Below are positions 23,699 through 30,290 of a stretch of DNA of 64,000 bases, piece after piece. Where the stretch lies: sequence record OR352947.1; one strand, written 5' to 3'. Under the pieces are notes generated by a model. The model searched no databases. It saw only the letters and a program-made list of their open reading frames with translations, and was not told the DNA's origin. Each line of letters opens with the position of its first letter. Positions within the stretch are counted from its first letter, which is position 1. A program made the translations under genes and the position numbers. The DNA is from Escherichia phage AV117.

Positions 23699-24826
23699 AT
23701 GGAAAAATTTATGGCTAAGTTTGGACAAGGATACGTCCAAACGCCATTTTTATCGGAAAGCAATTCAGTACGATTTAAATTAAGCATAGCGGGCTCTTGC
23801 CCGCTATCAACATCTCCTGCTTATATTAAGTTCCAAGATAATCCACTTGGGTCCCAGGTTTTTTCTGTTGGATTAAACGTTCGTGTAATAAATCCTACAA
23901 CAGGTGCAGTAGTTGAATCTAAGTCATATAATTTCTCTACTGAAAACGACGCCACGTCAAGTGCATTTGTTACTTACATGGACACATATGCACCAAATTT
24001 TATATTTGCTCTTGTTACTAACGCTAAAACAAACTTTCCGCCCGAAGTTCTTGCATGGTTTACTAAAGCCGGGAGTTCTGTTATTCCATTAGCTCAACAA
24101 GTTTTAAATATAGTGGACATTTCTTATTCGGCATTTTATATTTCTGGTAAGAATGCTATAGCACTAGAACATATTAAGTATAGTAATAAGAAAACTTCAA
24201 CCGACTATAGTACACCACTTGATGTTGTGTACGACACGATTGATGATATTGGTGCTACCGGCTTCCCTAGTCGTACGTACGAATCATCAGACACATTTTT
24301 ATCTGCTGTTGGAGGTACTAATAATGAAATTAAAAGGATGCCTACAACATCCCTTATTACACCTCTCGCTGGGTATAAATTGAAGGCTGGAGATTTCCTT
24401 TATATGAAATTCCAACTAATGGCTGATGCTGATTTGTTAGCACAAGGGACGACACGACTTTCTATTCGGTTCTTTAAATCTCCTTCTACTTCACCTATTT
24501 CATTTAAGGATATAAACTTTGATGGGGGTGCAGGTGAATGGAAGATATATGAAGACTACGTAGAAATTCCTGCTGGTGCTGACGGGTTCACGATTTATTG
24601 TTATCGTACAGCTCCAGTCGGGCAGGGTGGATTAAGAAACGTTATATTCACTGAAGTATCATGTAATGGAAGCGTTTCAAAACCTGCTGAGTTTGGTATA
24701 AATGGTATTCGTGTAAATTATGTTTCAGAATCTTTAAGTGCCCCAGACATAATGACATTACCTACTCAATCTTCAACTGATACTGGTAAGGTATTTGGAC
24801 AAGAATTTAAAGAAGCATCAGAATAA
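23699..24826 (+). CDS. 35: long tail fiber hinge protein gp35
   Basis: 375 aa; synteny. Confidence 0.9.
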   Translation: MEKFMAKFGQGYVQTPFLSESNSVRFKLSIAGSCPLSTSPAYIKFQDNPLGSQVFSVGLNVRVINPTTGAVVESKSYNFSTENDATSSAFVTYMDTYAPNFIFALVTNAKTNFPPEVLAWFTKAGSSVIPLAQQVLNIVDISYSAFYISGKNAIALEHIKYSNKKTSTDYSTPLDVVYDTIDDIGATGFPSRTYESSDTFLSAVGGTNNEIKRMPTTSLITPLAGYKLKAGDFLYMKFQLMADADLLAQGTTRLSIRFFKSPSTSPISFKDINFDGGAGEWKIYEDYVEIPAGADGFTIYCYRTAPVGQGGLRNVIFTEVSCNGSVSKPAEFGINGIRVNYVSESLSAPDIMTLPTQSSTDTGKVFGQEFKEASE

Positions 24827-24888: not shown

Positions 24889-25551
24889 ATGGCCGATTTA
24901 AAAGCTGGTAGTACAACTGGTGGTGCCGTTATATGGCATCAAGGTAATTTCCCTTTAATGCCAGCAGGTGATGACGTCCTGTATAAAACGTTTAAACTCT
25001 ATTCAGAATATAATAAACCACAAGCGGCTGATAACGATTTCGTTTCTAAAGCTAATGGCGGTACTTACGCTGCAACTGTTCGATTTAATGGAGGCGTACA
25101 TGTTCCTACTGTAGGTAGTAGTCAACAATGTGGTGTTTATCCAGGTAACGGAGACGCATCTACTTTTGCTATGGCAAATATTGACATCGTTTCGTGGAAT
25201 GGTATTGGTTTTAAATCATCACAAGGTTCAGCAGACCGAACTGTTGTAATTAATGCACGTAATGGTGATATTAGTACAAAAGGCGTTGTGACAGCAGTAG
25301 GTCAAATAAGAAGTAATGCAGTTGCTCCAGTTGCAGCAAATGATCTCACAAGAAAAGATTATGTTGATGGACGAATAAATATTGTTACGGATAACGCAAA
25401 TTCCCGTGTATTGCGTTCTGGCGATACTATGGCTGGTACTTTAACAGCACCAAACTTTTTCTCACAGAATCCGGCATCTGAGGCTAATCATGTTCCTCGT
25501 TTCGACCAGATTGTAATTAAAGATTCTGTTCAAGATTTCGGCTATTATTAA
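24889..25551 (+). CDS. 36: long tail fiber distal connector gp36
   Basis: 220 aa; synteny. Confidence 0.9.
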
Positions 25552-25559
25552 GAGGACTT

Positions 25560-28500
25560 ATGGCTACATTAAAACAGATACAATTTAAAAGAAGCAAAGT
25601 GGCAGGAGTTAATCCTACTGCAGCACAATTAGCCGAAGGCGAATTAGCGATAAACTTAAAAGATCGAACTCTTTTTACTAAAGATGACCTCGGTAATATT
25701 ATTAGCCTAGGCTTTGCTAAGGGCGGGGATATTAACGGTAATGTAACTCAAAATGGAGATTATTTACAGAACGGTGCATATAATCTCAATGGAAACCAGT
25801 TTGTTTATGCAGGAAAGTATATTGAATTCTTGCCAAAAACTGCTGGAAATGGCGCTTGGGCTAACCAACACACAAATAAAGCCCCTATCTTTACAGATTT
25901 GAGTTCAACTACTTCAACTTCTGAATACCACCCTTTGATTAAGCAACGTTATAAAGACGGTACTTTTTCAGTAGGTACATTAGTAAGCGAAGGCTCATTT
26001 AGAGTTCATTATATTGATTCTACAGCTCCAGACAATTCTAAACACTGGGCCTTTAACCGTAATGGTAATTTTATTGTAGATTCTGGTAGTATTGAGGTCC
26101 GCGCAGGTAATATTTCTGCGTCAGGCAATATTAACTCCGCTAATGGTATAGTTTCTGCTCCACAAGTTAATACGAAAACCATTGTTTTAGACACAAAAGC
26201 ATTCGGACAATATGATTCACAATCATTAGTTCAATATGTTTATCCTGGAACAGGTGAAGAAAATGGTATAAACTATCTTCGTAAAGTTCGAGCTAAATCA
26301 GGCGGAACTATTTACCATGAAATCGCTTCAGCTCAAACTGGTAAGAATGATGAAATTTCTTGGTGGACCGGAAACTCACTTACCACTAAATTAATGGGTC
26401 TTCGTAATGATGGCGCAATGGTATTACGTCGTTCACTTGCTATTGGCACAATTACCACTGACGAAAATACTAACAACTACGGTTCTCCTACTCCAATGGG
26501 AGAAAGATATATTGCTTTGGGCGATGCTGCAACCGGTTTAAAATATATTAAGCAAGGTGTTTATGATTTAGTAGGTAATTGGAATTCTGTTGCTTCTATT
26601 ACTCCTGATAGTTTCCGTAGTACTCGTAAAGCATTATTTGGACGTTCAGAAGACCAAGGCGGAACCTGGACAATGCCTGGCACTAATGCCGCTTTCTTGT
26701 CTGTTCAAACACAAGCTGATAATAACAATGCTGGAGACGGCCGGACACATATTGGTTATAACTCCGGTGGAAAAATGTCGCACTATTTCCGTGGTACAGG
26801 TCAGATGAATATCAATACCCAACAAGGTATGGAAATTAACCCGGGTATTTTGAAATTGGTAACCGGTGCAAATAATGTGATGTTTTATGCTGATGGCGGT
26901 ATTACATCCACTAAGCAGCTTTCAATATATAATGGTGTATATTTAGCAGCTAATAATTCTACTGCTGGGCTAACATTCGCTCCAACTACTACAATTGATG
27001 GCACTAAGCAAATTTTGTGGGAAGGTGGTAAGCGCGCTGGACAGAATAAAAGCTATGTAACTGTTAAAGCGTGGGGTAATTCATTTAACGCATCTGGCGA
27101 TCGTAATCGCGAAACAGTTTTTGAAGTAGCTGACGGACAAGGTTATTATTTTTATTCCCAACGCGTAGCCCCAAGCGGCTCCGAAACTACTGGTCCTGTT
27201 GTAACCCAGTTTGCTGGAGCTGTTAATGCTAGAGGAAGTATTATTACTGACGGAAGTTTTAAAGTTAATGGATTAAGCACTTTAGTCGGTAATGTTACAA
27301 TGAGCAATGGTCTTAATTTAACTGGGGGTTCTTCTATTACAGGCCAAGTAAAAATTGGTGGAACTGCCGATGCATTAAGAATTTGGAATGCTGAATATGG
27401 TGCAATTTTCCGTCGTTCTGAAGATAAGCTTTATATTATTCCAACTCCGCAGAATGCTGGTGAAACAGGCGGTATTTCTAATTTACGTCCATTCTATATT
27501 GCATTAAGTAATGGTAAAGTCAGCATGGATCATGATGTTGATATCGGTGGTGGAAGATTTAAAGTAGAAACTAGTGGAACAACATCGGGGCAACGTATTA
27601 CAGTTAATACTGCCTCCGATGCTATTAGAATAAATGCTCCAACACAAGAGTCTTCTAACTTCATCCAAGGACGTAAAGCAGATGTCACAAAATGGTATTT
27701 GGGTATTGGCGATGGCGGCAACATCGTTCGTATGCACAGTTACACCTATTCCCATGGTATTGCATTAAACTCTGATACGGTTGATATAGCTAAACCTCTT
27801 AGAATAGGTTCAACCCAGATTGGAACCGATGGTAACATCACAGGTGGTTCTAGTAATTTTGCTAACCTGAACACAACTTTAGAACGTAGAGTTAAGGTCG
27901 GAACTTGGTCCGGTAGTTCAACTGCAGGATGGTATAAATTTGCTACTGTAACTATGCCACAATCAGTTTCTACCGTCCAATTTAAGATTATAGGTGGTAA
28001 TGGATATAATGCCAATTCACCAGAACAGGCTACAATTACTGAAGTAGTTCTTCGTACCAGTAATAACAATCCTAAAGGTATTAACGCCACTTTATGGGGG
28101 CGCACGGGTAATGGATTTACTAATATAGCAACAATTAATACCTCCGGTGATGATTATGACGTTTATCTGTATGCTGGGACTTATGCAGACAAACTTATAG
28201 TTGAATATGACGCCACAGAAAATACACGTTATATTTCGGTAATTGGTCTTAATGGTGGATATCAAACACCAGTAACAGAATTACCCGCTGGTCATCTCGT
28301 TGGTCAAGTGTATATGATGTATTCTGATGCTCAAATACCTTATCCGGTCGGTGCTCCGATTCCATGGCCAAGTGATTCAGTTCCTGACGGGTTTGCTTTA
28401 ATGGAAGGTCAGACTTTTGATAAGTCTGCATATCCTAAGCTCGCTATCGCATATCCTACAGGTACTATTCCTGATATGCGTGGACAAACTATCAAGGGTA

Positions 28501-29042
28501 AACCAAGTGGTCGTGCTGTTTTGAGCGCTGAGGCAGATGGTGTTAAGGCTCATAGTCATAGTGCAAGTGCATCAAGCACAGATTTAGGTACTAAAACCAC
28601 ATCAAGCTTTGACTATGGTACTAAGACGACAAGTAGTTTCGACTATGGTACTAAGACCAGTAATAATACTGGTGCTCATACGCATAGTTTGAGCGGTTCC
28701 ACAAACACCGCCGGTGCGCACAGCCACACAAGCGCTCTTTATGCGGGCGATAGAAACTCTCCTGGTGGTAGTTCTGCAAGAGGATCCGCCGGTGGTGGTA
28801 ATACGCTTGGAACTTCTTCTTCTGGGGCACATTCGCACTCTATATCTGGTACTGCTGCAAGCGCAGGCGCTCACGCACATACTGTTGGTATTGGTGCTCA
28901 TACCCATACAGTTGGTATTGGTGCTCACACCCATTCAGTAGCAATTGGTTCACATGGGCATACAATAACTGTAAATAGTACAGGTAATACAGAAAACACG
29001 GTTAAAAACATTGCTTTTAACTATATCGTTCGTTTAGCATAA
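25560..29042 (+). CDS. 37: long tail fiber distal subunit / receptor-recognising protein gp37
   Basis: 1160 aa; C-terminus ...[11 protein letters not shown] as in T4; His-x-His repeats near tip. Confidence 0.95.
28587..28657 (+). repeat. in-frame 30-nt tandem repeat (about 2.3 copies) encoding [10 protein letters not shown] within gp37 tip
   Basis: Direct nucleotide repeat read in sequence. Confidence 0.8.
28868..28960 (+). repeat. in-frame 27-nt tandem repeat (about 3.4 copies) encoding AHTHTVGIG His-x-His units within gp37 tip
   Basis: Direct nucleotide repeat read in sequence. Confidence 0.8.
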
Positions 29043-29047
29043 GGAGA

Positions 29048-29061
29048 GGGGCTTCGGCCCC
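29048..29061 (+). promoter_or_regulatory. UUCG hairpin (GGGGC-UUCG-GCCCC) between Shine-Dalgarno (AAGGAG) and AUG of gene 38
   Basis: SD at 29041-29046, hairpin, ATG at 29070. Confidence 0.6.
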
Positions 29062-29069
29062 TTCTAAAT

Positions 29070-29621
29070 ATGAAAATATATCATTATTATTTTGACACTA
29101 AAGAATTTTACAAAGAAGAAAATTACAAACTGGTTAAAGGTCTTGGTCTTCCCGCTCATTCAACAATTAAAAAACCTTTAGACCCTAAAGAAGGCTATGC
29201 TGTTGTATTTGATGAACGCGAACAAGAATGGGTATATGTTGAAGACCATCGTGGAAAAACAGTATGGACATATGATAAGCAAAAAATTGTTATTGACACT
29301 CCAGGTGCTCTTCAAAATGTTACTACAGAAGAACCTGGTGAATTTGACATTTGGACTGGCGACGGGTGGAAGGAAGATGAAGCATATAAACGCGTAGTTC
29401 AACGTGATAAGAAAATTCATGAACTCTATAAATTATTCAGTGTTTTAAGTTCTCTTATTGACGCAGAGGTTGCTAATAGAGAAGAAAAACGAAAATTTAA
29501 AGAGCTCAAAAAATTCTTTGCCCTTTTAGAAAAACATGAACATCTTGGCGGTGAATTCCCTAAATTCCCTGACCTTGAAAACAAATCTATTATCAAAGCG
29601 ATTATAAATATCTTTAAGTAA
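29070..29621 (+). CDS. 38: gp38 tail fiber assembly chaperone (T4-type)
   Basis: 183 aa; N-terminus MKIYHYYFDTKEFYKEENYK matches T4-type gp38. Confidence 0.9.
   Translation: MKIYHYYFDTKEFYKEENYKLVKGLGLPAHSTIKKPLDPKEGYAVVFDEREQEWVYVEDHRGKTVWTYDKQKIVIDTPGALQNVTTEEPGEFDIWTGDGWKEDEAYKRVVQRDKKIHELYKLFSVLSSLIDAEVANREEKRKFKELKKFFALLEKHEHLGGEFPKFPDLENKSIIKAIINIFK
29603..29610 (+). promoter_or_regulatory. late promoter TATAAATA for holin gene t
   Basis: TATAAATA about 20 nt upstream of t ATG, inside 3' end of gene 38. Confidence 0.5.
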
Positions 29622-29630
29622 GGAGGTATT

Positions 29631-30290
29631 ATGGCAACACCAAAAGTATCATTTTCACTTAGTGATATTCTATTTGGGTTGCTAGATCGTATTTTCAAAG
29701 ATAACGCTACTGGAAAGGTTTTAATGTCCCGAGTAGCGGTAATTGTTCTTTTGTTCCTAATGGCACTAATATGGTACAAAGGAAGTATTTTGCTGGATTA
29801 TTACGTAAGAGCTAAGTATGATACTTATACTGAAATAATCCAAAAAGAACGAGCTTTACGTTTTGAATCTGCGGCTCTAGAACAACTGCAAATAGTTCAT
29901 ATCTCATCTGGTGCAGATTTTAGTGCTGTGTATTCTTTCAGACCTAAAAACTTAAATTATTTTGTCGACCTTATAGCTTATGAAGGCAAACTACCTAGCA
30001 CAATTTCTGAAAAGTCCCTTGGCGGATTCCCGGTGGATAAAACGGCTAATGAATATATAATTCATTTAAGTGGCCGTCATTTCTCATCTAAATCAGAATT
30101 TGCATTTTTGCCTACAAAATCTAAGACTGCCGAACTTTCTTATATGTATAGTTGTCCATACTTTAATTTGGATAACATCTATGCCGGAACTGTGACGATG
30201 TATTGGTATAAGGGGAGTAATATACTTGAGGAAGACCGCTTAGCGGCTATATGCAACCAAGCGGTCCGAATACTAGGAAGGGCTAAATAA
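29631..30290 (+). CDS. t: holin T
   Basis: 219 aa; single N-terminal TM segment and large periplasmic domain; matches T4 T. Confidence 0.9.
   Translation: MATPKVSFSLSDILFGLLDRIFKDNATGKVLMSRVAVIVLLFLMALIWYKGSILLDYYVRAKYDTYTEIIQKERALRFESAALEQLQIVHISSGADFSAVYSFRPKNLNYFVDLIAYEGKLPSTISEKSLGGFPVDKTANEYIIHLSGRHFSSKSEFAFLPTKSKTAELSYMYSCPYFNLDNIYAGTVTMYWYKGSNILEEDRLAAICNQAVRILGRAK

Follow-up and report, generated by a model that had tools for sequence, protein, structure and literature searches.

The receptor-binding tip of T4-type long tail fibers is a homotrimer, in which the chain goes from the collar to the head and back again, so that three hairpins form a six-stranded stem, and this stem is held by metal ions on HxH motifs, with octahedral Fe and six histidines at each site. 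In fibers of the T2/T6 type, gp37 is capped by a gp38 adhesin of ~260 aa with glycine-rich motifs, and its C-terminus is without a His-box needle. The T4 gp37 tip was reportedly described by Bartual et al. in 2010 (PDB 2XGF), and the idea of 'His box' shuffling is said to come from Tetart and Krisch. Small-domain duplications in the gp37 adhesin, reportedly bounded by His boxes, are also said to be able to expand the host range of T4 (Tetart, Repoila, Monod and Krisch 1996, J Mol Biol 258:726). In T4, the stem has been delimited to residues 882-931 on the ascending strand and 960-1009 on the descending strand, on either side of a tip subdomain (932-959) to which the LPS and OmpC contacts were mapped (Islam 2019, PMC6957217), and the T4 limits of the D10/collar domain were taken from the same paper. 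Recombination between conserved adhesin motifs has been described by Tetart and Krisch (PMC3157838), and needle lengths were found to vary in the Bas63 cryo-EM paper.

The window analyzed here is a stretch of 64,000 nucleotides from Escherichia phage AV117 (OR352947.1). It contains a T-even distal tail-fiber cluster, in which gp35 (23699-24826) and gp36 (24889-25551) are followed by gp37 (25560..29042, plus strand, ORF call), the distal subunit of the long tail fiber, then by gp38 (29070..29621, plus strand) and, directly after it, holin t (29631-30290). The phage backbone (36-56 kb of the window) is 98% identical to the Mosigvirus phages AV112 and AV113. The Pfam families matched by gp37 were Collar, gp37_trimer, Gp34_trimer and Phage_fiber. 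With 1160 aa, gp37 exceeds T4 gp37 by 134 residues, so a preliminary description of this DNA was correct in calling it longer. The 183-aa gp38 showed 69% identity to T4 gp38 over 179 aa (E=9e-93) and matched Pfam Caudo_TAP and phrog_105 (tail fiber assembly), which indicated that it is a T4-type tail-fiber assembly chaperone and, as had been proposed, not a T2-type adhesin. The locus therefore does not belong to the T2/T6 type, as gp38 is of 183 aa and T4-like, and the end of gp37 is a His-box needle.

Two side observations were made in the cluster. Residues 58-128 of the gp35 hinge protein matched Pfam PF15711 (ILEI, interleukin-like EMT inducer; E=3e-7), a family whose name is surprising in a phage fiber protein. 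An SD-like GGAGAGG (29043-29049) and the ATG of gp38 (29070) flank a hairpin, GGGGC-UUCG-GCCCC (29048-29061), and the stretch that holds it (29043-29072) is 100% conserved relative to T4. This hairpin presumably resembles the T4 gene 38 case, in which a CUUCGG hairpin draws the Shine-Dalgarno sequence near the start codon.

Judged by sequence, the C-terminal part of gp37 is a T4-type receptor-binding tip with collar, HxH needle and head. In a phmmer search, aa 922-1160 matched PDB 2XGF (T4 gp37 tip, chain residues 23-242) with E=1.7e-88, which bears out the earlier placement of the repeats within the HxH needle of such a tip. All parts of the tip lie on the plus strand. The collar domain (D10, N-terminal part), located by Pfam and the 2XGF alignment, covers aa 926-996, corresponding to T4 811-881 (28335..28547), with Pfam PF07484 Collar on aa 931-978 (E=4.5e-11) preceding the stem. 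The 2XGF alignment placed the ascending stem strand with HxH motifs 1-3 at aa 997-1056 (28548..28727), 60 aa compared with 50 aa in T4 (882-931), and the descending strand with motifs 4-8 at aa 1085-1143 (28812..28988), 59 aa compared with 50 aa in T4 (960-1009). Between them is the head, or tip subdomain, at aa 1057-1084 (28728..28811; T4 932-959), the presumed receptor-contact region. A C-terminal strand returning to the collar occupies, with the stop codon, 28989..29042; it is 100% identical to T4 and holds several invariant columns of tip alignment A1 (E224-N229, N233).

Of the eight HxH motifs (first residues at aa 998, 1040, 1054, 1091, 1105, 1114, 1123 and 1132), three are on the ascending and five on the descending strand, with spacings of 42 and 14 residues, a head gap of 37, and then 14, 9, 9 and 9. 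Six are of the GAHxH type, in agreement with the multiple G-A-H-x-H motifs mentioned before, and there is one KAHSH and one GSHGH. An AlphaFold2 model of the tip monomer (46-sequence alignment; pLDDT 61.9, pTM 0.30) was moderately confident in the collar and the distal hairpin alone. The strand limits of this low-confidence monomer (110-129/170-189 and 104-106/193-195) were symmetric around the head, in line with the T4-derived register described below, and its nearest solved structure was 2xgf_A (Foldseek against the PDB, E=2.7e-16).

Two tandem arrays, both in frame within the 3' end of gp37, were detected by Tandem Repeats Finder. The first one (28587..28659, plus strand) has a period of 30 nt, with 2.4 copies, 81% matches and a score of 97, and encodes a 10-aa FDY unit in two full copies (28587-28616 and 28617-28646) and a partial third. 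The second one (28869..28976, plus strand) is a 27-nt His-box repeat, in which three AHTHTVGIG-like copies are followed by a degenerate SHGHTITVN; the program reported 28869-28949 with a period of 27, 2.6-3.0 copies, 83-86% matches and scores of 85-100. The previous counts of ~2.3 x 30 nt and ~3.4 x 27 nt were thus a fair account of the arrays. Between the two full FDY copies there are 7 differences in 30 nt, all of them synonymous (e.g. Ser TCA vs AGT), leaving the peptide the same; chance falls far short of explaining such a perfect tandem duplication of a 10-residue peptide. Among themselves, the three good His-box units showed 74-85% pairwise nt identity, and to the degenerate fourth 48-52%. 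In Shigella phage SHBML-50-1 (L193), the first two His-box units encode one peptide, AHTHTVGIG. An antisense ORF of 110 aa on the minus strand (28602-28934) lies wholly within the repeat region; it was dismissed as a gene, the repeat composition being its most likely cause.

The excess length of gp37 had been tied to these repeats. When the tip was aligned with 2XGF, a check that the preliminary description had itself proposed, the stem differed only by two gaps in T4, one of 10 aa (an FDY unit) and one of 9 aa (an AHTHTVGIG unit). The extra repeat units make up just 19 of the 134 surplus residues, so the link between total length and repeats fails. A full-length alignment with T4 assigned most of the remaining surplus to a 143-aa shaft block, aa 777-919 (27888..28316, plus strand), which falls in an alignment gap of T4, upstream of the collar and outside the repeats. 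By alignment the block is missing from GiZh and ECO07P2 as well as from T4. In tblastn its identity was 100% to moha and 56% to T2 gp37, and no other part of the locus resembles T2 gp37. Searches of the block against Pfam and the PDB gave no match, and the PHROGs matched had unknown or tail-fiber function only. A word-indexed search of 5.8 billion proteins returned one partial match, and the block was considered as a rare sequence; this was rejected, as 298 phage records matched it in tblastn.

The repeat copies have a history of their own in other phages. FDY copy 1 is identical to the single unit of T4, both copies are base-for-base the same in F2, and copy 2 is also found in GiZh, where copy 1 is one base off. 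This copy-specific identity, together with the synonymous differences between the copies, indicated that the copies are old. Among 17 phages, the FDY copies within each genome shared 67-90% identity, and the nt identity of orthologous and paralogous units was similar (~82% vs ~79%), so that copy orthology across distant phages is unproven and some gene conversion may have occurred. In one sampled phage, the first two His-box units were 100% identical in nucleotides, which hints at occasional gene conversion.

The HxH layout 42,14/14,9,9,9 (ascending/descending) was present in 16 of 18 phage tips, drawn from Tequatrovirus, Mosigvirus, Karamvirus, Moonvirus and Lambdavirus, and T4 and Moon alone had the seven-motif form, which makes T4 the short variant. 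The eight-HxH needle is the ordinary majority form of an already known receptor-binding tip, and the moha record is already annotated with a repeat_region at the matching place. Related phages therefore do carry the same repeats, the repeat part of the observation that the preliminary description had named as speaking against its own reading. Its claim that the repeats lengthen the needle stood in that the AV117 stem is one unit longer than that of T4 (8 vs 7 HxH), but not as an expansion particular to AV117.

The two arrays had also been taken to be independent of each other. From the T4 limits given above and the T4 stem contacts G921-F970 and H929-G964 (Islam 2019, PMC6957217), an antiparallel register of i+j ~1891.5 was obtained, and in this register the T4 FDY unit (895-904) lies opposite 988-997, 'GAHTHTVAIG', a His-box unit. 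From these published residue limits and two contacts, and not from coordinates, we infer that the FDY unit faces a His-box unit across the hairpin. The ascending stretch with the FDY units is histidine-free, and by this estimate its histidines are supplied by the facing descending strand.

The numbers of units were then compared in tips from three sources, namely 120 proteins from a large protein search, 80 viral loci from a search in which the entire tip was the query, and 103 genome and viral loci collected via the collar domain alone, a selection blind to stem length. In 166 of 170 unique tips, the length of the first ascending gap (22, 32, 42 or 52 residues) went with the number of nine-residue descending gaps (1, 2, 3 or 4, respectively); the tips are related sequences, so that shared descent could explain part of the co-variation. 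Two of the four misfits had merely lost a His, and their lengths were still balanced. When the gaps were permuted, 0 of 10,000 permutations rose above 94 tips on the diagonal. Both strands had the same number of 14-residue units in 169 of the 170, and in the collar-only sample the pairing rule was followed by 63 of 66 unique tips. These results, with the register estimate, argued against independent arrays. Head sequences were numerous in each length class, with 23 different ones among 28 tips in the class of AV117, which may be over-represented as the samples were drawn with the AV117 tip as query; heads are evidently exchanged between the repeats of both strands without unbalancing the stem.

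Truly unbalanced tips were found in 3 of 170 cases, with layouts of 42,14/14,9,9 (L110, identical to L038), 32/9,9,9 (L146) and 42/9 (L169), and this showed that the balance is not absolute, or that those genes are defective. One possibility is that they are defective prophage genes, another that the head region absorbs the slack. The head gap of L110 is long, at 55 residues. That ascending and descending units should be paired in this way is a natural consequence of the known fold, and no statement of the pairing rule was found in the literature searched; the rule is the sole point of some interest here.

By sequence comparison, gp37 is a mosaic of segments found in other phages. Residues 625-924 showed 86-100% identity to moha and residues 965-1160 showed 91-100% identity to F2 and ECO07P2, and the DNA identity profile was 100% moha-like up to ~28355 and F2-like (100%) from ~28416. 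Further switches were seen inside the tip, where the head DNA (28716-28799) matched ECO07P2 at 98-100% and F2 at only 87-92%, while in the His-box array (28899-28958) this order was reversed, with 98% for F2 and only 83% for ECO07P2. Such a fine mosaic fits recombination between conserved adhesin motifs (PMC3157838). The gp38 and holin genes match both moha and F2 at ~100% and T4 at just 43-88%. For the whole gp37 gene there was no close full-length match in the phage collection, the best one having 94% coverage and 88% identity. The head is the part of the tip most different from T4, with 39-59% identity to T4 vs 95-100% to ECO07P2, and a different head, of 50 residues, is carried by AV112, the closest backbone relative, and by moha, the shaft relative. 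The repeats had been suggested to alter receptor specificity; the head between HxH motifs 3 and 4, diverged from T4 and nearly identical to ECO07P2, is more plausibly the determinant than the stem repeats.

We consider it probable that the two repeats are two sides of one structural module in the T4-type needle, and that they represent a common ancient form with no recent expansion. An FDY unit on the ascending strand and an AHxHxVxIG unit opposite it on the descending strand would make up one 'rung' with one HxH site, and the AV117 stem would have three rungs vs two in T4. The third rung would bring the predicted metal sites to 8 vs 7, the eighth presumably binding metal too, and would add ~10 residues (roughly 3 nm) to the stem relative to that of T4. 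Selection on the hairpin register would keep the ascending and descending unit numbers equal, and receptor choice would be made mainly by the head between His boxes 3 and 4, which may have been swapped by recombination, the AV117 head being of the ECO07P2/F2/GiZh type. A stricter form of this reading, to which we give about an even chance, is that the T4/lambda-type stem is a strictly modular ladder in which selection forbids unbalanced unit numbers. In such a ladder, a rung may consist of 10 residues up, 9 down and one metal site, and the distal module may consist of 14 residues per strand with two sites.

Other readings of the repeats were weighed against the paired module. It is very improbable that they are a recent slippage-type, in-frame expansion peculiar to AV117 that lengthened the needle and changed receptor specificity, even though AV117 has one copy more of each unit than T4, and the title of Tetart et al. 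1996 says that duplications in the gp37 adhesin can broaden the host range of T4. Slippage-prone repeats have near-identical DNA copies, and these copies have diverged, as shown by the 7 of 30 nt in the FDY units, the 74-85% identity of the good His-box units and the 81-86% matches in Tandem Repeats Finder. Slippage-prone repeats also vary in copy number among close relatives, whereas here 16 of 18 phages have equal copy numbers, F2, GiZh and ECO07P2 have the same units, and the copy-specific sequences recur in F2 and, bar one base in copy 1, in GiZh. Moreover, both arrays co-vary as a pair and not independently, and the greatest difference from T4 is in the head, not the stem. An assembly or sequencing artefact, with the repeat collapsed or duplicated, is scarcely conceivable: short tandem repeats are prone to mis-assembly, but these copies can be told apart, the frame is intact to the conserved C-terminus, and identical arrangements occur in many independently sequenced genomes, which speaks against an artefact of assembly.

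Two further proposals concern what the repeats are for. The His-box and FDY repeats might be chiefly homology patches for head-swapping recombination, their number being incidental, a possibility that we think doubtful although it is compatible with the structural explanation. The fine-scale mosaicism in the gp37 tip, with its moha/F2/ECO07P2 switches, and the many heads found on one stem class speak for it. Recombination alone, however, does not explain the matched ascending and descending unit numbers, and the FDY peptide was kept through seven synonymous changes; both facts point to a structural constraint. Less likely again is an adaptive needle length, in which rung number tunes the reach of the head through LPS/O-antigen and the three-rung form was selected on certain hosts. 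Stems do fall into discrete length classes, which have between 1 and 4 rungs and may or may not contain 14-residue units, and the Bas63 paper speculates that motif number goes with needle length, but in a single class the hosts of isolation range over E. coli K-12, O157, O111, Shigella, Yersinia pestis, Citrobacter koseri and E. fergusonii, so that no link between length and host is visible.

T4, which serves as the structural reference, is the short variant, and a gp37 tip that differs from it in length should not for that reason be taken for an expanded one. In aligning, modelling and engineering fibers, the repeats of both strands are best treated as one paired unit, and the head domain, with its recombination history, should be the focus of host-range prediction. 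The discovery value of the AV117 repeats is little, since they are the usual 8-His-box form of a well-studied tip, present in most T-even and lambda-like relatives. If the ladder is true, the sequence would reveal stem length, which could then be engineered one rung at a time, and this could guide the design of fibers of set length and a test of LPS reach vs host range.

Among known systems, the AV117 tip shares its general plan with that of T4. Both have a collar, an HxH stem on either side of a small head, a conserved C-terminus and a T4-type gp38 downstream, and the identity, 69% for the tip as a whole, rises to 95-100% in the His-box portion and next to the collar. Unlike AV117, T4 has one FDY unit and one His-box unit fewer, with 7 HxH motifs vs 8; the head has diverged, and the AV117 shaft carries the added 143-aa block. 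The T4 mutants of Tetart 1996 reportedly also have tandem in-frame duplications in the gp37 adhesin domain, but those were new, selected events, whereas the extra units of AV117 are old, diverged and common to most relatives. Among Tequatrovirus phages, ECO07P2, F2 and GiZh share the layout 42,14/14,9,9,9 and the head family of AV117; over the stretch between the first His box and the C-terminus, ECO07P2 departs from it at 2 residues, and F2, whose gp37 has 1204 aa, shows 97% DNA identity over 28263-29100. Their shafts are different, that of AV117 being moha-like. The lambdoid Stf C-terminal domains, with hundreds of prophage homologues of 1-4 rungs, have the same plan of collar, HxH stem and head, and HK629 has the 8-HxH layout of AV117, although these proteins are siphovirus side fibers with other N-terminal shafts, other heads and a Tfa-type chaperone.
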